Below are positions 1 through 12,421 of a DNA stretch of 12,421 bases, piece after piece. The DNA is taken from the IMG/VR virus record IMGVR_UViG_2925919700_000002, positions 1-12,421 of that record; one strand, given 5' to 3'. Made by a program: the position numbers and the translations under genes. Every line of letters begins with the position of its first letter. The stretch's first letter is position 1. The stretch is from a virus (Duplodnaviria > Heunggongvirae > Uroviricota > Caudoviricetes). The notes under the pieces were generated by a model. That model had not been told where the DNA came from and made no database searches. It worked only from the letters and a program-made list of their open reading frames with translations.

Positions 1-1146
1 TTACGCCTTCTTTATATCCTCCATAATTCCAGAGTGGGACATATTTGGGACATTATCACCAAAAATGTCGTCTATTTTCCTCGAATGCTCTGTCAAATGA
101 TTAGGCGCAAGGTGAGCATACCTACGAACCATTTCTATGGACTCCCATCCGCCCATTTCCTGAAGCACTGATAATGGGACGCCTGACTGAATCAGCCAGC
201 TTGCCCAGGTGTGTCTGAGGTCATGGAAACGGAAATCTTCAATTCCTGCACGACGACAAGCTGATAGCCATGATGTCTTGCTGTCGATGCGCATCTTCCT
301 GACCGCAGGCGTTGATGTTCCATCTGCTCGCTTAGCCGCCTTGGTATGTACAAACACCCATTTGTGATGCTTGCCTATTTGATCACGCAACACTTTACAG
401 GCGGTATCGTTCAGCGCCACACCAATGGCGCGGTTTGATTTGCTCTCTTCTGGATTCACCCAGGCAACTCGTCGCTGCATGTCGATTTGTTGCCATTCCA
501 GATTTATGATGTTCGACTTTCTCAGACCAGTTGCCAGCGCAAACTTGACGACAGATTTCAGTGGTTCGGGGCACTCATCAATAAGGCGTTTTGCTTCCTC
601 CTTTTCCAGCCATCTGACTCGCTTGTTTCTGACCGCTGGTTTCTTGATGACAGGCGCTTTTTCCAGCCACTTCCAGTCGCGTTCTGCAGCACGGAGAATG
701 GCCTTTATCATGGCAAGATGCTTTGCCTTTGTCTGAGTTGATACTGGCTTTGGTTCATAAACAGGCGGTTCTTTACCTTTCCTGATGGCGGCCTGAACTT
801 TCTGTTTCCATATTTCTTTCGTCTTTCTGTTATGCATTCTGCTTACAGCAGAGTAAATCTTTGCCTCCGAGATATCTTTACCAGCTCGTTGCTGCCAGAC
901 GATCCAACCGAGAGTCATATCCCATGCCATGTATTCGTTATCGCCGTTTTTTACTCTACGACGATCTACTAAGTCACCGAAACGCTTTTCCATGAATAAT
1001 TCATAGGCTTCGCGTTCATCTGGCTCTACTTCCAGAGATACGAGTGCGATTTCATAAGCACGGCGCTCAATATCGTCTCGAACCTCTAGGCTGCTGATTC
1101 GTTCTTTGATTTCTTTAATCAGTTCTTTATTGGTAAATGTGGTCAT
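1..1146 (-). CDS. int: Phage tyrosine integrase (P22/DLP12 IntD family catalytic and core-binding domains) with a non-canonical N-terminal ~90 aa
   Basis: 381-aa ORF, stop at 1-3, ATG at 1144-1146. C-terminal region carries the tyrosine recombinase signature ([17 protein letters not shown] ... [39 protein letters not shown]). N-terminal ~90 aa are acidic and helical, unlike the MSLFRR-type arm-binding domain I recall for this family. Confidence 0.85.
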
Positions 1147-1508
1147 TATGCTCCAGCCTCCGGTGCTTTTGGCATTACTGCCCAGTGAGTGATATTGACG
1201 TTTTCAAGGTCCCCGACCTGAAATGTCCACTGCCATTCTCCGGTTTCTTTTTGTCCCCAGGTGTACCAGAGAGAACGCCAGCCAATCAGCCAGCCTTCTC
1301 CATTAGCATCAAATAACAGAACACTTTCATTTGCTGGTGGCAGTTCAGCTGACACTGGTATTATTTTGTTTTCCAGTGCCGCACATTTAGCTTCAAGCGC
1401 GTCGAATTTACGTAACAGGTACTCAGCATTTGTTTCATTCACTTTCAGATCTCGCGGTACACATTTCCCGCGAAGAAACCCTTCCATTTCGAAAACATTC
1501 ATGCGCAT
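1146..1508 (-). CDS. Hypothetical phage protein, DUF551-like C-terminus, translationally coupled to int
   Basis: 120-aa ORF. Its TAA stop overlaps the int ATG (TAATG on the minus strand). GGAG lies 8 nt upstream of the ATG at 1506-1508. C-terminal Trp-rich motif ([17 protein letters not shown] ... [12 protein letters not shown]) resembles the conserved DUF551 C-terminus. Function unknown. Confidence 0.6.
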
Positions 1509-1723
1509 TTGCGTAACTCCGATAAATCGTTAAAACGTTCCATAAACATCCCGTAGGCATGACCCGGTGCCAGTGGAATCACGTTGAACATCTCTGTTGC
1601 CGGGATGCCTTCCAGTACCGTGGCATTTGAAGAGAAGTATGGCTCCCAGCTGGAGCTGATATTTCGTTTTATCGATCGCGCACTGGCGATTGGTGTGCTG
1701 GCCTGATTTTGTGGAGAAAGTTA

Positions 1724-2107
1724 ATGCGTGATATTCAGATGGTTCTTGAACGTTGGGGAGCGTGGGCGGCTAATAATCATGAAGATGTGACCTGGTCGTC
1801 CATTGCCGCCGGTTTTAAGGGATTAATTCCTTCAAAAGTAAAATCTCGCCCGCAATGTTGTGACGATGACGCGATGATTATTTGCGGGTGCATGGCCCGT
1901 CTGAAAAAGAACAACAGCGATTTGCACGATTTATTAGTAGATTATTATGTAGTCGGTATGACATTCATGTCACTGGCAGGTAAGCATTGCTGCTCTGATG
2001 GTTATATCGGGAAAAGGTTACAGAAGGCTGAGGGCATAATTGAAGGGATGTTAATGGCATTAGATATCCGGTTAGAGATGGATATCGTTGTTAATAACTC
2101 TAATTAA
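1724..2107 (+). CDS. quuD: Late-gene antiterminator Q, phage 82 / DLP12 QuuD type
   Basis: 127 aa from ATG 1724 ([14 protein letters not shown]...), with GGAGAAAG 5 nt upstream. Cys clusters ([25 protein letters not shown]) are typical of 82-type Q. The ORF track's TTG at 1709 is a less likely start. Sits directly upstream of the late/lysis region. Confidence 0.85.
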
Positions 2108-2246
2108 TATGCCAATTGTTTACTGAAAGTTATTAAAAATGGGGCGTTGCAACGCCCCCAAAAATAAAGGGTAATATATAACAGAAGGTTTATATAGTTA
2201 GAAGCAAGGTTGTGCTCCTAAAGGAAGTGGCTTGAGGGAGCCACTT
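2108..2246 (+). promoter_or_regulatory. Presumed late promoter and Q-utilisation region (pR'/qut equivalent); exact -35/-10 not resolved
   Basis: Position immediately downstream of Q and upstream of a plus-strand terminator, as in lambda and phage 82. I could not pick a convincing sigma-70 hexamer pair by eye. Confidence 0.3.
2133..2158 (-). terminator. Rho-independent terminator on the minus strand, downstream of nmpC
   Basis: Perfect 18-bp GC-rich palindrome GGGGCGTTGCAACGCCCC (2141-2158). On the minus strand it is followed by ATTTTT; on the plus strand it is flanked by A-runs, so it is strand-specific. Confidence 0.6.
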
Positions 2247-2287
2247 ATATGTTGGGGAGGCAACGCCTCCCGCAACATATCTTTTTC
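2225..2287 (+). terminator. Tandem hairpins followed by a T-run on the plus strand; candidate late terminator (tR' equivalent)
   Basis: Hairpin 1 at 2225-2246 (AAGTGGCT / AGCCACTT). Hairpin 2 at 2247-2280 (ATATGTTGGGGAGGC / GCCTCCCGCAACATAT, one bulge). CTTTTT follows at 2281-2286. Confidence 0.5.
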
Positions 2288-2296
2288 GTAATCAGA

Positions 2297-3394
2297 TTAG
2301 AACTGGTAAACCAGACCTACAGCAACGATGTCATCAGTGCTTACACCGAGTGCTTTAGTGAAGTCATTTTTGTCAAGCAGGTTGATTTTGTAATCAACGA
2401 AAGTAGACATATTTTTGTTGAAGTAATAGGTTGCACCTACATCAACATATTTGACTAAGTCCTGATCGCCCCATACTCCAAGATCCTTACCTTTAGATTG
2501 CAGGTAAGCAACGGACGGACGCAGACCGAAATCGAACTGATATTGTGCAACAGCTTCGAAGTTTTGAGCTTTATTAGCAACGAAGTGATCAGCAAATACA
2601 GTCATATTCTGGGTTTCAGAATAGGTAGTGGCCAGGTAAATGTTGTTAGCGTCATATTTCAGACCTGCGGCCCAAACTTCTGCATTTTTACCGGAAGCAA
2701 ATACTTCAGGAAGAACTTTCCCTGCATTAACTTGAGTGTCGGTACGATCAGATTTCGCATAAGTTGCACCGATACCGAATCCTTCGTATTCATAGGTAGC
2801 AGAGAAACCGAAGCCATCACCGTTACCTTCGGTGTAGTTATCGAAATCGCTACGATCGTTTTTGCCTTGGTACTGAGCAGCAAAGTTCAGACCATCAACC
2901 AGACCAAAGAAGTCGTTGTTACGATAGGTTGCAACACCAGTGGTGCGACCAGTCATGAACACATCTGTTTGGGTCCAGGTATCGCCACCGAATTCTGGCA
3001 GAACGTCAGTCCACGCACCGATGTCGTATGCTACACCGTAGTTACGGCCGTAATCGATTGAGCCGTAGTCACCGAATTTCAGGCCTGCAAATGCAAGACG
3101 GGTTTTGTCTTTGGAGGAACCTTGAGATTCAGCGCGGTTGCCTTTGAATTCATATTCCCACTGACCGAAACCAGTCAGCTGATCGTTGATTTGGGTTTCG
3201 CCTTTGAAGCCCAGACGAACATAAGTAGTATCACCATCATCTGCATCGTTAGAGGAAAAGTAGTGCTTGGCATTAACTTTCCCGTACAGATCCAGCTTGT
3301 TACTGTCTTTATTATAAATTTCAGCTGCCTGAGCAGACATCGCCATCAGTACTGATGCAGCTACAGCAGAAATTGCCACTGTTAATTTTTTCAT
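2297..3394 (-). CDS. nmpC: Outer-membrane general porin, prophage-encoded NmpC/Lc type (OmpC/OmpF/PhoE family), intact
   Basis: 365 aa. Sec signal peptide [23 protein letters not shown] then AEIYNKD. Porin signatures throughout and a C-terminal ...VGLVYQF ending in Phe. AAGGG lies upstream of the ATG at 3392-3394. No insertion sequence interrupts it. Confidence 0.9.
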
Positions 3395-3982
3395 CGTGAG
3401 CCCTTTTTTTTGAACTATTATTAAAAAATGATGTCACTGCACGATAAATATTCATCTAATCAATGTGATTATTTCAAGATGTAAGTTTTAGTTTCTCATT
3501 TAATTTGTGAAGTAGATCTCTATTTTTATCTGAACTTTTTCTATCGAAACCTATTTATGGCTCTTATTTGAACAAAAATAAATCTATTAGCTAATTTATA
3601 TTAATGGCTGTTATTTATGGTGGTTCTATAATTCGTCTGTTTAATTTAAACCGGCTAAAAATAACACTGGAAATTATTTATTGGTTATTTGTTGAGGTTT
3701 TCTTATGTATTTGTGGTGATGTTTTGAACACTCGGTAGCATTCTCATAAATATCATTCAGTGGTTTACGTACGTAAAAAATTGGTTATGCTGTTAAGAGT
3801 GGTTACTTCGTCACACAGCTTAAACCCGCCGTCGAGCTGGTTTTTCCATTTTTTGAGTCTCGATATTAGCTGATAACTCAATACCTGAGTTATTCACTGA
3901 CTCGGAGTCAGTTACGTTTCTGCTTTTTTGCGATACGTTGTATTCCCTCAATTTACACCCGCTTTGTCTGCGAGGTGGGGTT
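3395..3982. promoter_or_regulatory. AT-rich 590-bp intergenic region: nmpC promoter/regulatory region and lysis-cassette leader
   Basis: No ORF of 60 aa or more. Degenerate direct repeats of TTATTTATGG at about 3552, 3611 and 3675, roughly 60 bp apart. Hairpin ACTGAC-TCGGA-GTCAGT at 3896-3912 upstream of the holin. Confidence 0.35.
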
Positions 3983-4198
3983 ATGAAATTCATGGATAAG
4001 TTAACAACTGGAGTCGCCTATGGCACCTCAGCAGGTAGTGCCGGTTACTGGTTTTTACAGCTGCTCGATAAAGTCACTCCCTCACAGTGGGCAGCAATAG
4101 GTGTGCTGGGTAGCCTGGTATTTGGCCTGCTGACGTACCTGACAAACCTTTATTTCAAGATTAAAGAAGATAAGCGCAAGGCTGCGAGAGGTGAATAA
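3983..4198 (+). CDS. essD: Class II pinholin, phage 21 S type, with dual-start motif
   Basis: 71 aa, [24 protein letters not shown]... Met1-Lys-Phe-Met4 gives antiholin and holin starts. Two TMDs and a charged C-terminus ([13 protein letters not shown]). GAGGTGGGG lies upstream. Stop overlaps the endolysin start (TAATG). Confidence 0.9.
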
Positions 4199-4695
4199 TG
4201 CCTCCATCATTACGAAAAGCCGTTGCTGCTGCTATTGGTGGCGGAGCAATTGCTATAGCATCAGTGTTAATCACTGGCCCAAGTGGTAACGATGGTCTGG
4301 AAGGTGTCAGCTACATACCATACAAAGATATTGTTGGTGTATGGACTGTATGTCACGGACACACCGGAAAAGACATCATGCTCGGTAAAACGTATACCAA
4401 AGCAGAATGCAAAGCACTCTTGAATAAAGACCTTGCCACTGTCGCCAGACAAATTAACCCGTATATCAAAGTCGATATACCGGAAACAACGCGCGGCGCT
4501 CTTTACTCATTCGTTTACAATGTGGGTGCTGGCAATTTTAGAACATCGACGCTTCTTCGCAAAATAAACCAGGGCGATATCAAAGGCGCATGTGATCAGC
4601 TGCGTCGCTGGACATACGCTGGCGGTAAGCAATGGAAAGGCCTGATGACTCGTCGTGAGATTGAGCGTGAAGTCTGTTTGTGGGGGCAACAGTGA
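4198..4695 (+). CDS. rrrD: SAR endolysin (signal-anchor-release lysozyme, phage 21 R type)
   Basis: 165 aa. N-terminal Gly/Ala-rich weakly hydrophobic SAR domain ([22 protein letters not shown]) followed by a lysozyme-like catalytic region. ATG overlaps the holin stop. Confidence 0.9.
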
Positions 4696-5153
4696 GCAGA
4701 GTAACCGCGATTATATCCGCTCTGATTATCTGCATCATCGTCAGCCTGTCATGGGCGGTCAATCATTACCGTGATAACGCAATCGCCTACAAAGCCCAGC
4801 GCGACAAAAATGCCAGAGAACTGAAGCTAGCGAACGCGGCAATTACTGACATGCAGATGCGTCAGCGTGATGTTGCTGCGCTCGATGCAAAATACACGAA
4901 GGAGTTAGCTGATGCGAAAGCTGAAAATGATGCTCTGCGTGATGATGTTGCCGCTGGTCGTCGTCGGTTGCACATCAAAGCAGTCTGTCAGTCAGTGCGT
5001 GAAGCCACCACGGCCTCCGGCGTGGATAATGCAGCCTCCCCCCGACTGGCAGACACCGCTGAACGGGATTATTTCACCCTCAGAGAGAGGCTGATCACTA
5101 TGCAAAAACAACTGGAAGGAACCCAGAAGTATATTAATGAGCAGTGCAGATAG
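4692..5153 (+). CDS. rzpD: Rz inner-membrane spanin (i-spanin), lambda Rz-like
   Basis: 153 aa from GTG 4692 ([29 protein letters not shown]...). N-terminal TMD plus coiled-coil periplasmic domain. GTG overlaps the endolysin TGA (GTGA). The ORF track's 4680 start is less likely. Confidence 0.85.
4912..5094 (+). CDS. rzoD: Rz1 outer-membrane lipoprotein spanin (o-spanin), embedded in the +1 frame of Rz
   Basis: 60 aa, [20 protein letters not shown]... Lipobox VVGC, then a proline-rich mature part ([15 protein letters not shown]). GGAG lies 7 nt upstream of the ATG. Lies wholly inside Rz. Confidence 0.8.
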
Positions 5154-6937: not shown

Positions 6938-9028
6938 TTGATCAAGAGCGATGTTAATTTGTTCAATCATTTGGTTAGGAAATCCGCGGCAACGCGCGCC
7001 GAGACAGCAGCAAAACGGGCAGAGGATATTGCATCCGCCGTGGCGCTTGAGGATGCGAGCACGACGAAAAAGGGGATAGTACAGCTCAGCAGTGCGACCA
7101 ACAGCACGTCTGAAACGCTGGCGGCAACGCCAAAGGCAGTAAAAGCAGCCAATGACAATGCTGAGAAACGTCTGCAGAAAGACCAGAACGGCGCTGATAT
7201 ACCCGATAAGGGACGCTTCCTGAACAACATTAACGCGGTCAGTAAAACAGACTTTGCTGATAAGCGTGGTATGCGTTATGTGCGGGTTAACGCTCCTGCA
7301 GGTGCAACATCTGGAAAATATTACCCTGTTGTTGTTATGCGTTCTGCTGGCTCAGTAAGCGAACTGGCATCAAGGGTCATTATCACCACGGCAACGCGAA
7401 CCGCAGGCGATCCGATGAATAACTGCGAGTTTAACGGATTTGTTATGCCTGGTGGCTGGACTGACAGGGGGCGTTATGCTTATGGAATGTTCTGGCAATA
7501 TCAAAACAATGAACGAGCCATCCACTCAATAATGATGAGTAATAAGGGCGATGATTTGCGCTCTGTGTTCTATGTTGATGGCGCTGCTTTCCCTGTTTTT
7601 GCGTTTATCGAAGATGGCCTGTCAATATCCGCACCTGGTGCTGATCTCGTTGTTAATGATACGACCTATAAGTTTGGGGCAACAAATCCAGCGACTGAAT
7701 GTATCGCGGCGGACGTTATCCTTGATTTTAAGAGTGGGCGTGGTTTTTATGAGTCTCATTCGTTAATCGTTAACGATAACTTGTCGTGCAAAAAACTTTT
7801 TGCCACAGACGAAATTGTAGCGCGTGGTGGTAATCAGATTCGAATGATAGGTGGGGAGTATGGTGCATTATGGCGTAATGATGGCGCTAAAACTTACCTG
7901 CTGCTTACCAATCAAGGTGATGTTTATGGTGGCTGGAATACATTAAGACCGTTTGCTATTGATAACGCAACCGGCGAACTGGTTATTGGAACCAAACTGT
8001 CCGCAAGTCTGAACGGTAATGCATTAACAGCAACAAAGCTGCAAACGCCAAGACTGGTTTCTGGTGTTGAGTTTGATGGTTCCAAAGATATTACTTTAAC
8101 CGCCGCGCATGTGGCTGCTTTTGCCAGAAGGGCAACGGATACGTATGCCGATGCGGATGGGGGCGTTCCATGGAATGCCGAATCAGGCGCTTACAATGTC
8201 ACCCGCTCTGGCGACAGCTATATTCTGGTTAACTTCTATACCGGAGTCGGAAGTTGCCGGACCTTGCAGATGAAGGCACATTACAGAAATGGAGGTCTGT
8301 TCTACCGTTCCTCAAGAGATGGCTATGGTTTTGAGGAAGACTGGGCAGAAGTTTATACCTCGAAAAATCTTCCACCAGAAAGCTACCCAGTCGGTGCACC
8401 AATCCCGTGGCCATCAGATACCGTTCCGTCTGGTTATGCCCTGATGCAGGGGCAGACTTTTGACAAATCTGCATACCCGAAACTTGCAGCCGCTTATCCG
8501 TCAGGCGTGATCCCTGATATGCGTGGCTGGACGATTAAGGGCAAACCTGCCAGTGGTCGTGCCGTATTGTCTCAGGAACAGGACGGCATTAAATCGCACA
8601 CCCACAGCGCCAGCGCATCCAGTACGGATTTGGGGACGAAAACCACATCGTCGTTTGATTACGGCACTAAATCCACGAATAACACCGGGGCGCATACGCA
8701 CAGTGTGAGCGGTACAGCCGCAAGTGCCGGAAACCATACTCATAGTGTCACAGGCGCATCAGCAGTCAGCCAGTGGTCACAAAATGGGTCAGTACATAAG
8801 GTAGTGTCTGCGGCCAGTGTGAATACAAGTGCTGCAGGAGCGCACACTCATAGTGTCAGCGGCACAGCCGCATCTGCAGGTGCTCACGCACATACTGTCG
8901 GTATTGGTGCTCATACGCACTCTGTTGCGATTGGCTCACATGGACACACCATCACCGTTAACGCTGCTGGTAACGCGGAAAACACCGTCAAAAACATCGC
9001 ATTTAACTACATTGTGAGGCTTGCATAA
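6938..9028 (+). CDS. stf: Side tail fibre protein, 5'-truncated: distal ~680 aa only, lacking the N-terminal tail-attachment domain; start codon uncertain (possible pseudogene)
   Basis: Open frame of 696 codons from TTG 6938. Similarity to Stf begins near 6984 ([55 protein letters not shown]). Conserved C-terminal block (GAPIPWPSD ... [31 protein letters not shown] ... [18 protein letters not shown]) matches lambda Stf and StfR as recalled. No in-frame ATG with an RBS near the 5' end. Confidence 0.8.
8596..8957 (+). repeat. His-x-His repeat array within the stf 3' region
   Basis: Repeated [15 protein letters not shown] units (8688-8732 and 8838-8882) plus shorter HTHS/HAHT/HGHT units. These are coding repeats, typical of the fibre-tip domains of lambda Stf and T4 gp37-type fibres. 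Confidence 0.7.
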
Positions 9029-9603
9029 TGGCATTCAGAATGAGTGAACAACCACGGACCATAAAAATTTATAATCTGCTGTCCGGAACTAATGAATTTA
9101 TTGGTGAAGGTGATGCATATATTCCGCCTCATACAGGTCTGCCAGCAAACAGTACCGATATTGCACCGCCAGATATTCCGGCTGGTTTCGTGGCTGTTTT
9201 CAACAGTGATGAGTCATCGTGGCATCTCGTTGAAGATCATCGGGGTAAAACGGTTTATGACGTGGCTTCCGGCGACGCGTTATTTATTTCTGAACTCGGC
9301 TCATTACCGGAAAATGTCACCTGGTTATCCCCGGAAGGGGAGTTTCAGAAGTGGAACGGCACAGCCTGGGGGAAGGATACGGAAGCAGAAAAACTGTTCC
9401 GGATCCGGGAGGCGGAAGAAACAAAAAACAGCCTGATGCAGGTAGCCAGTGAGCATATAGCGCCGCTTCAGGATGCTGTGGATCTGGAGATCGCAACGGA
9501 GAAAGAAACCTTGTTGCTGGAAGCCTGGAAAAAGTATCGGGTGTTGCTGAATCGTGTTGATACATCAACTGCACCGGATATTGAATGGCCAGCCCTACCG
9601 TAG
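9028..9603 (+). CDS. tfa: Tail fibre assembly protein (Tfa)
   Basis: 191 aa. ATG overlaps the stf stop (TAATG). Conserved C-terminal Tfa block [37 protein letters not shown]. Confidence 0.85.
9455..9568 (+). repeat. Direct repeat copy A (tfa 3' conserved block)
   Basis: About 114 bp, roughly 85% identical by eye to 12226-12340, in the same orientation. Confidence 0.7.
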
Positions 9604-9679
9604 GGTAAGATATATAAATTCTATAATTAGAAGTATCTTTCCATTTAAGGCTAGGAAGGGGGGCTTGGAAAACGTAAGG

Positions 9680-9703
9680 AATCTCACACCGAGATTATTT
9701 TTA
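9680..9703. terminator. Weak hairpin between convergent tfa and recombinase genes; possible bidirectional terminator
   Basis: Stem AATCTC / GAGATT with loop ACACC at 9680-9696, followed by ATTTTT on the plus strand. Short stem, low confidence. Confidence 0.3.
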
Positions 9704-10291
9704 TATATCAGGTGTCTGATTTTTTGCTTTAGCTCTTAAAATGGTTTGCCGCGAGGTTTTGAATTCTTGGGCAATGTCACTTATATTTATACCTGACTTA
9801 ATTTGCTCTAGTACCCTCTGTATTTGTTCATCATTTAACACAGGTGGGCGACCAAATCGCTTTCCTGCGCCCCGTGCTCTTAATATCCCTGAATGAGTAC
9901 GCTCAAGTAAAAGGTCTCGCTCAAATTCAGCGACTGCTGAAATTACTTGCATCATCATTTTTCCAGGTGGACTGGTCAGGTCAACGCCCCCCAATGCTAA
10001 GCAATGCACTTTGATACCTGCTTTGGTCAGTTGTTCCACCGTTTTACTGATATCCATTGGATTACAACCGAGGCGATCCAGTTTTGTGACAATCAATGCA
10101 TCACCTCTTTTCAGTCGATCAAGCAACTGGTTAAAACCAGGACGCTCACTGGTTGCTGCTGAGCCGCTAATTTGTTCTTCAATTATTTGCTGAGATTTGA
10201 TGTTAAAACCTGCACTTTCGATTTCCCGACGTTGATTTTTGGTTGTTTGTTCCAGAGTTGATACCCGACAGTAAGCATAAATTCGAGACAT
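9701..10291 (-). CDS. Small serine recombinase (resolvase/invertase family), PinR/PinQ-like
   Basis: 196 aa. N-terminal catalytic motif [11 protein letters not shown] with the presumptive catalytic Ser. Conserved [12 protein letters not shown] and [14 protein letters not shown] blocks. C-terminal HTH ([19 protein letters not shown]). Position after stf-tfa on the opposite strand matches the Rac and Qin layout. Confidence 0.85.
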
Positions 10292-12115: not shown

Positions 12116-12421
12116 ATGCTGCCGCAGCATAGCGATATTGAAATAGCCTGGTATGCTTCGATACAACAGGAGCCGAATGGCTGGAAGACCGTCACCACAC
12201 AGTTCTACATCCAGGAATTCAGTGAGTATATTGCGCCACTGCAGGATGCTGTAGATCTGGAAATCGCAACGGAGGAAGAAAGATCGTTGCTGGAGGCATG
12301 GAATAAATATCGGGTATTGTTGAATCGAGTTGATACATCAGTAGCTCTGGGTATGAAGCTGTTTGTAACTCATGTTACAGTAACAGTCATTACTATCTCG
12401 AAGGTGCAAAATGTATATTGA
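12116..12421 (+). CDS. tfaX: Tail fibre assembly protein remnant (TfaX-like), carrying only the conserved Tfa C-terminal block
   Basis: 101 aa. AAGGGG lies upstream of the ATG at 12116. Contains [37 protein letters not shown], then an unrelated tail. Stop at 12419-12421. Confidence 0.6.
12226..12340 (+). repeat. Direct repeat copy B (tfa 3' conserved block)
   Basis: Partner of 9455-9568, same orientation. Confidence 0.7.

Follow-up and report, generated by a model that had tools for sequence, protein, structure and literature searches.

An intact nmpC/lc porin gene in a DLP12-type prophage remnant, probably a leftward unit of its own between Q and the late promoter

The porin gene nmpC/lc of lambdoid phages, its disruption by IS5 in K-12, its position in qsr'/DLP12 and the IpeX RNA of its 3' UTR have all been described already, and the intact allele is common. 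Lysogens of phage PA-2 undergo a swap of porins, in which OmpC and OmpF are lowered and the phage porin is added; Castillo-Keller et al. (2006) reportedly attributed the loss of OmpC in these lysogens to this 3' UTR, which follows lc. IpeX is a 167-nt DLP12 RNA that originates from the phage porin promoter within the porin transcript and lowers OmpC (PMC12197685), and it is listed among the regulators of ompC (PMC3333887, PMC5745476). For the late promoter of related phages, differential RNA sequencing (dRNA-seq) of Stx phages with a 144-aa Q protein has mapped the start of PR' transcription to a site shortly after Q, at a distance of 258 nt from tR' (PMC7547250).

The DNA analyzed here (the window, 12,421 nt) occurs with 100% identity in E. 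coli MB06234 (seawater, Galapagos), where it directly adjoins a tRNA-Arg gene, and it comprises an entire 12.4-kb DLP12-type prophage remnant. Its features, in the order of the remnant, are the following:

First in the remnant: integrase fragment fused to a YfdT fragment, annotated as two pseudogenes
Between this fragment and Q: DUF551 gene
1709/1724-2107, plus strand: Q antiterminator of the QuuD type (RefSeq start ATG 1724, 127 aa; PF06530, E 9.8e-54)
2133-2296, minus strand: 3' UTR of the porin mRNA, putative IpeX equivalent, 164 nt long when counted from the stop codon through the T-run
2247-2286, plus strand: strong predicted intrinsic terminator, a 15-bp hairpin with a bulge (2247-2280) and a following CUUUUU, immediately preceding the 3' end of the porin gene
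2297-3394, minus strand: nmpC/lc porin gene, uninterrupted (signal peptide codons 3326-3394, mature protein 2300-3325, stop codon 2297-2299)
3395-3760, minus strand: AT-rich porin control region, 24-31% GC
3764-3845, plus strand: pR' homologue and leader between the porin control region and the holin gene, assigned by homology and conservation
3983-4198, plus strand: S21-type holin/antiholin (71 aa, second start at codon 4; PF04971, E 2e-35)
4198-4695, plus strand: lysozyme (PF00959; annotated as rrrD in K-12)
4680-5153, plus strand: Rz (PF03245; annotated as rzpD in K-12)
4912-5094, plus strand: Rz1, embedded in Rz (from the ORF list; annotated as rzoD in K-12)
After Rz/Rz1, minus strand: bor
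After bor, in this order: ybcV, ybcW, a 5'-truncated tail-fibre gene with its assembly gene, a Pin-like invertase gene, a methyltransferase gene and a tfa fragment

The holin gene is the first gene of the late/lysis operon, and the same gene is annotated in phage 434B. The Q protein is 99% identical to QuuD of K-12 and, the C-terminus excepted, 77-80% identical to the 144-aa Q proteins of Stx phages; it also has a distant match to the structures of Q21. No repressor, N, replication, head or tail-shaft gene and no pR was found in the 12.4-kb window. Because repressor, N, replication, head and tail-shaft genes are absent, no lytic programme is possible in the remnant, and "late transcription" in this strain can only be whatever the orphan Q gene achieves.

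We hold it to be highly probable that the locus is the classical nmpC/lc lysogenic-conversion unit of lambdoid phages, intact within a DLP12-type remnant at tRNA-Arg, and that it forms a self-contained leftward unit lodged between the Q reading frame and the cognate pR' of Q, with late transcription running away from the porin gene. Such a unit would comprise a CRP-type control region (3395 to ~3760), the porin gene (3394-2297), the 3' UTR (2296-2133) and a terminator (2158-2141). Its transcription would give rise to an OmpC-like trimeric porin; IpeX, as a part of the same transcript, would lower the host's OmpC and OmpF, thereby swapping the porins.

A preliminary description of this DNA had recognized that the gene between the late antiterminator and the holin, on the opposite strand, encodes an NmpC/Lc-type porin of full length with a signal peptide, and the protein comparisons, the ORF map and the Pfam assignments of the neighbouring genes agree with it throughout. 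In the six-frame ORF list, 2297-3394 on the minus strand is a single ORF of 365 codons (365 aa) with an ATG start. The Pfam family Porin_1 (PF00267) spans the protein end to end (profile positions 1-337 of 337, E 1.8e-156), and the protein is identical to Lc of phage PA-2 (GenBank J02580) at 362 of 365 positions in a gapless alignment (99%). It passes the NCBIfam model of the OmpC subfamily with 527.8 bits at a cut-off of 484 and stays below the cut-offs of the PhoE and OmpF equivalog models. Residues 24-365 align with the crystallized chains of OmpC, OmpK36, PhoE and OmpF from the first to the last residue (E ~1e-136), whereby residue 24 (AEIYNK) corresponds to residue 1 of the OmpC chains. 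Because residues 24-365 fully cover the solved porin chains, residues 1-23 are best read as the signal peptide, and its AQA-A motif predicts cleavage after AQA; a signal peptide of the same 69 nt is found in the annotation of lc from PA-2. The constriction-loop (loop-3) motif LPEFGGD is found at residues 132-138, and the C-terminus GLVYQF retains the terminal phenylalanine, the C-terminal aromatic residue that is needed for assembly. From the full-length alignment to solved porins, the protein would be expected to form a 16-stranded, trimeric β-barrel that conducts solutes. Moreover, the ORF is no accident of sequencing, as the same 1098 nt recur with 100% identity in 30 of 30 records among the matches listed. 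Strain 12009 (O103:H2) likewise carries an identical porin.

The statement of the preliminary description that the equivalent gene of K-12 is disrupted by an insertion sequence proved accurate. In MG1655, IS5B splits nmpC 58 nt before the 3' end of the gene; in the alignment, the two nmpC fragments of K-12 are collinear with the gene of the window, and this insertion maps after window position 2358 with the TTAG target at 2355-2358. The target is empty in the window, and together with the single 365-codon ORF this bears out that the gene is uninterrupted. What did not hold up is that the intact state is in itself worthy of note. The 1098-nt gene is present at an identity of at least 99% in 853 of 20,395 E. 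coli records, and, of 5,426 complete genomes, very roughly 650-950 cover a 200-nt probe across the IS5 site in one piece at an identity of at least 95%, a count to be taken as a range only, since the probe also matches some ompC alleles at ~87%. The split matches of the K-12 type come mostly from laboratory K-12 derivatives, and the IS5-disrupted state looks like a feature of the K-12 lineage. Intact nmpC/lc is the common natural state, with near-identical copies in hundreds of E. coli genomes. The module of Q, porin and holin genes is also carried by the plaque-forming phages PhiR29_1, Kati, Turner, mEp332 and ev099 (91-99.9% identity), as well as by 434B, a derivative of phage 434 that has acquired the DLP12 segment of K-12 including IS5 and still grows.

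Upstream of the porin gene, the control region shares ~96% identity with its counterparts in PA-2 and K-12. The PA-2 record annotates two CRP-type sites upstream of lc, from which we mapped a CRP-like site, TGTGA-N6-TCTCT, to 3503-3523 of the window. A consensus promoter scan of 2100-4300 returned no promoter at the threshold of 9/12 matching positions; a relaxed scan gave weak σ70 candidates with 8/12 at best, for example a -35 TTGAAA at 3477-3472 with a -10 GAATAT at 3453-3448. These features bear on an alternative that we consider rather unlikely, namely that the porin is intact but silent owing to H-NS-type silencing of the control region with its 25% GC, catabolite repression or temperature, so that the envelope is unaffected under ordinary conditions. 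E. coli B reportedly provides a case in point, as it is said to carry an intact but quiescent nmpC (Prilipov, 1998), and the very low GC content, the CRP sites annotated upstream of lc and the missing strong consensus promoter would all be compatible with silence. However, in K-12 the activity of the promoter PnmpC, which is located no more than 199 bp from the ATG, suffices to drive the transposase gene of IS5 (PMC11677980), an NmpC spot has been identified in outer-membrane gels of AIEC isolates (PMC9409007), and loss of an IS element from nmpC restored the mRNA and changed the susceptibility to cefotaxime (bioRxiv 10.64898/2026.08.19.745717); the close identity of the control region to those of PA-2 and K-12 likewise speaks against a silent gene. 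Condition-dependent expression of this porin appears likeliest to us. The effects on expression and permeability that were proposed in the preliminary description are plausible, and their consequences have already been studied in homologues.

At the other end of the unit, a fold with five hairpins is predicted for the 3' UTR on the minus strand (-59.9 kcal/mol, z -7.15). The last of these, GGGGCGUUGCAACGCCCC, is followed by AUUUUU and constitutes the intrinsic terminator of the porin gene according to both the terminator scan and the fold (stem 2158-2141, minus strand). The stretch 2108-2296 is near-identical to K-12, and by its position and length the 3' UTR appears to correspond to IpeX, whose function it would presumably share. 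The intact gene would consequently imply more than an additional porin: IpeX is joined to the porin promoter here, while in K-12 IS5 separates the two. The preliminary description had overlooked this 3' UTR as well as the remnant state of the prophage. At a permissive threshold, Rfam returned no match within 2100-4000, neither to IpeX nor to a late-leader family; its sole matches at this threshold were IS009 in tfa genes and a sub-threshold CssrB.

On the plus strand, the same region contains the bulged hairpin with its T-run at 2247-2286, which a simple scan had missed because of the bulge. The RNA fold of 2215-2292 reaches -35.1 kcal/mol (z -5.43), and none of 200 shuffled sequences was as stable. 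As judged from this fold, the element would stop rightward transcripts that have passed through Q before they enter the porin gene and would thereby shield the latter. For complete phages with the module, one may argue that antisense transcription of the porin gene arises from N-modified rather than Q-modified polymerase, which would read from the early rightward promoter through Q and the 2247-2286 terminator and shut off the porin during lytic growth. N-modified polymerase of lambda ignores intrinsic terminators, and the location of a terminator just before the 3' end of the porin gene suggests that rightward transcripts do arrive there; the scenario is inapplicable to the window, however, which is devoid of N, pR and the repressor region, and we regard it as somewhat improbable. 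For the remnant itself, we retain the reading of a leftward unit that is insulated from rightward transcription.

Crucial for this reading is the location of the late promoter. When the spacer between the porin and holin genes (3395-3982) was compared with phage genomes, more than 280 records of Stx phages, besides the phages that carry the porin, matched; the Stx-phage matches cover one short block only, positions 369-451 of the query, which correspond to 3763-3845 of the window (~76-77% identity). The block falls on the "pR' putative late promoter" annotated in phages 06-3462 and Ss-VASD and, in 06-3462, also on the annotated first rho-independent terminator; both elements are situated directly at the end of Q. 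The alignment with the Stx phages assigns a -35 hexamer TTTACG (3764-3769), which is identical in these phages, a 16-nt spacer and a -10 hexamer TATGCT (3786-3791), for which the Stx phages have TATCAT. This is followed by the conserved initial transcribed block of the leader, AAGAGTGGTTAC, and by a hairpin with a T-run at ~3817-3845; the hairpin of the window carries a mismatch, T3838. The two hexamers agree with the consensus at 8 of 12 positions, which is below the scan threshold of 9/12, so that the assignment was made by homology instead.

Conservation points to the same block. Among six porin loci with up to 10% difference in their control regions, the sequence corresponding to 3763-3878 is invariant except for one base, and the most variable stretch is 3609-3694. 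In Shigella phage SfII, the holin is of another kind and an unrelated leftward gene occupies the place of the porin gene; the block GTTAAGAGTGGTTACTTCGYCACACAGCTTAAACCCGCCGTCGAGCGGGTTTT is kept nearly unchanged there between diverged flanks. The 17-nt core motif of pR' occurs a single time in the window when two mismatches are allowed (at 3763), and 2057-2296 contains no pR' homologue of the related Q family. Upstream of 3764, we sought traces of the longer C-terminus that Q has in the Stx phages; only its last five codons, which overlap pR', are recognizable, and stop codons precede them. Searches of the window for a sigma-dependent pause element and a Q-binding element identified neither. 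Taken together, the cognate late promoter most likely lies on the holin side, beyond the 5' end of the porin gene. From the published 258-nt distance to tR' and the spacing after the -10 hexamer, late transcription would start at ~3798, 185 nt before the ATG of the holin gene; Q would hence act on a promoter 1.7 kb away from its own gene, with pR' and the leader (3764-3845) placed ~185 nt upstream of the holin.

A published lux reporter for the DLP12 lysis operon was built on this porin-holin intergenic region (PMC7918800), and the primers of its fragment map to positions 3322 and ~4105 of the window. The same study cites control of the DLP12 lysis operon by a Q-type antiterminator and RpoE. 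The numbering of the fragment, "-121 to +650", implies another plus-strand start near window position 3444, and by eye a sigma-E-like motif precedes it (GAACT at 3412-3416, 16 nt, TCACT at 3434-3438). This motif may explain the start near 3444 and would fit the cited control by RpoE. Our conclusion is left unchanged by such a start, because it is situated outside the coding sequence of the porin and directed away from the latter.

The boundary of the porin unit on the Q side is seen at the end of the Q gene. The Q genes of the window, phage Lambda_2E9 and the Stx phages align collinearly as far as the codons for RLEMD (~2083) and are fully diverged thereafter. In the Stx phages, Q continues for 24 codons past RLEMD and overlaps pR'. 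In Lambda_2E9, Q ends after ADCLR and is followed by a leftward gene for a Blc lipocalin and a rightward YbgA-like gene; a pR'-like site, GTTTACAATCGTAAAAA-N-TATGAT, is located 1.9 kb downstream of Q. The Q protein of the window has IVVNNSN as its last residues, and the porin unit comes next; the final ~8 codons of this Q gene (from ~2084) constitute a tail specific to this arrangement. The sequence 2084-2296 is to be assigned to the moron and not to Q, because it is absent downstream of Q in Lambda_2E9 and the Stx phages and is present beside lc in PA-2, where it is 97.8% identical. On these comparisons, we delimit the moron to ~2084 to ~3760, i.e. ~1.7 kb that appear lodged between the Q reading frame and pR'. 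The view of the porin gene as a moron is sustained by its absence from the same junction in related phages and by its own minus-strand terminator.

These observations also bear on the claim that Q-modified late transcription must read through the porin gene in antisense, which we can no longer uphold: the sole pR' homologue (3763-3845) lies past the 5' end of the porin gene, the plus-strand terminator at 2247-2286 would halt rightward transcripts before they reach it, and the spacer 2084-2296 appears to belong to the porin unit and not to the Q module. It is thus very improbable that the late promoter directly follows Q as in lambda and that Q-modified polymerase crosses ~1.7 kb, including the porin gene in antisense, to the holin while colliding with porin transcription; such a layout is usual for lambdoid phages and is seen in the overlap of pR' with the end of Q in Stx phages, an extended -10-like TGTTAATAA (2089-2097) followed by TAATAT-GCC (2105-2113) can be made out by eye at the end of Q, and the plus-strand hairpin and T-run at 2247-2286 could pass for tR', but 2057-2296 is without a match to the pR' of related Q genes, the consensus scan found no promoter there, 2084-2296 travels with lc in PA-2 and encodes the porin 3' UTR on the other strand, and the block 3764-3878 on the holin side is invariant but for one base across diverged phages.

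With the porin unit placed between Q and pR', the point after RLEMD becomes a possible, if tentatively proposed, recurrent insertion site for leftward or otherwise independent morons between Q and its promoter or utilisation site, where each insertion would provide Q with a new short C-terminal tail, keep the cargo outside late transcription and leave opposing terminators as insulation. The cargo found at this junction is ipeX-nmpC in the window and Blc together with the YbgA-like gene in Lambda_2E9. Should the pattern be general, the position of the cargo relative to pR' would predict whether a moron trait is expressed in lysogeny or coupled to lysis. The recurrence of the junction with different morons between Q and pR' is the only point here that is mildly new.

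For the locus itself, the analysis amounts to a correction: because the cognate pR' appears to be on the holin side, the porin unit would stand outside the Q-dependent late operon, and the locus offers no basis for models of antisense interference. In strains with the intact allele, one transcript can add a porin and, via IpeX, lower OmpC and OmpF, which is relevant to the entry of antibiotics and to phages that use OmpC.

Among described systems, the lc locus of PA-2 (J02580) is shared in gene length, 23-residue signal peptide, 3' UTR and neighbours, and its pR' block is 100% identical over 3731-3919. The two differ in three residues of Lc (V59A, R99H and V154F) and in a handful of base changes at ~3560-3650 of the control region; moreover, PA-2 is an active phage, whereas the window is a decayed remnant. 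DLP12 (qsr') of K-12 has the argU locus, Q (99%), the spacer, the lysis genes and the pR' block in common with the window. However, in K-12 IS5B follows codon 346 of nmpC, thereby removing the last 19 residues including the C-terminal phenylalanine and separating ipeX from the porin promoter; furthermore, 16 nt of the leader (window 3920-3935) are missing and position 3838 is G instead of T. The protein resembles OmpC and OmpK36 of known structure (for example 2XE2, 1OSM and 2J1N) over its full length, including the PEFGG motif of loop 3 and the C-terminal YQF, but its loops differ, with shorter L4 and L5 regions in the alignment, and its gene is phage-borne and not part of the core genome. 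Finally, Stx phages with a 144-aa Q (933W/Sakai Sp5 type; StxS region) share a related Q and a homologous -35 hexamer, spacer, -10 hexamer, initial block and first hairpin. There, pR' and the 3' end of Q overlap, and the morons (tRNAs and stx) are located downstream of pR' and transcribed late, whereas in the window the moron is found upstream of the pR' homologue, on the other strand and, by this placement, outside the late operon.

The Q genes of three phage groups follow a common sequence as far as the RLEMD codons (around position 2083 in the window) and then run into three unrelated C-terminal tails:

about 2075-2107 of the window: Q-tail junction, tail IVVNNSN
2880-2893 of L007, the phage Lambda_2E9 sequence: Q-tail junction, tail ADCLR
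1440-1514 of L003, the Stx-phage sequence: Q-tail junction, 24-residue tail that overlaps pR'

Downstream of Q past RLEMD, the content is likewise different in each of the three groups, and the junction looks like a hot spot of recombination or insertion. In Lambda_2E9, a Blc-like lipocalin gene (leftward) and a YbgA-like gene (rightward) occupy 3050-4726 between the related Q and a pR'-like site; these two are a further set of cargo genes located at this junction. In the window, two long open reading frames run antisense to the porin gene, both of which are probably artefacts of its codon pattern:

2249-2458 (+): 69-aa ORF, identical to 'ORF1' of the 1986 PA-2 record
2498-3061 (+): 187-aa ORF

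To the left of Q, the whole early region is deleted with a junction near 1509-1620, and as a result of this deletion Q is left without an obvious phage promoter upstream. The left end itself is taken up by a chimera, which the RefSeq annotation of MB06234 treats as two pseudogenes:

1-1146 (-): 381-aa ORF, integrase C-terminal part joined to YfdT N-terminal part

Between the porin and the holin, a sigma-E-like motif was spotted by eye near the 5' end of the porin gene:

3411-3446 (+): candidate sigma-E-like promoter, GAACT (3412-3416), 16-nt spacer, TCACT (3434-3438)

This motif is directed toward the lysis genes and stands back-to-back with the candidate porin promoters; its placement fits both the '+1' to which the numbering of the lux fusion in PMC7918800 points and the RpoE control cited for the DLP12 lysis cassette. 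Further downstream, the late leader varies between strains at two places: Position 3838 is T in the window and in PA-2, where it creates a mismatch within the first leader hairpin, and G in K-12, PhiR26_1, ev243, ev017 and SfII. Moreover, the 16 nt CTGCTTTTTTGCGATA (3920-3935), which include the T-run 3' of a hairpin at about 3893-3911, are missing from K-12 and PhiR26_1. Both the T/G difference and the absence of the 16 nt could change basal read-through into the holin gene.

Across 6938-10291, a tail-fibre gene truncated at its 5' end is accompanied by its assembly gene and, on the opposite strand, by an invertase of the Pin/Gin type; in DLP12 of K-12 this place is occupied by nohD-aaaD-tfaD. 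Together with a further fragment, these genes appear to be what is left of an invertible host-range segment:

12116-12421: second tfa fragment

The candidate small RNA family IS009 of Rfam matches at 9371-9569 (212.6 bits, over the gathering score) and at 12139-12342 (107.4 bits, slightly under the gathering score of 117). The two tail-fibre-assembly genes contain these matches in their 3' portions, and the family probably just mirrors conserved tfa coding sequence.

Finally, the -35 element of the pR' homologue is overlapped by a symmetric sequence, which may be a binding site of a dimeric protein, e.g., Q:

3764-3777: perfect 14-bp palindrome TTTACGTACGTAAA

82Q is thought to bind as a dimer, with its site between -35 and -10 (PMC4914094). 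Stx phages have TTTACGATCGTAAA at the equivalent position, in which the two central bases are changed relative to the window while the dyad symmetry is retained.
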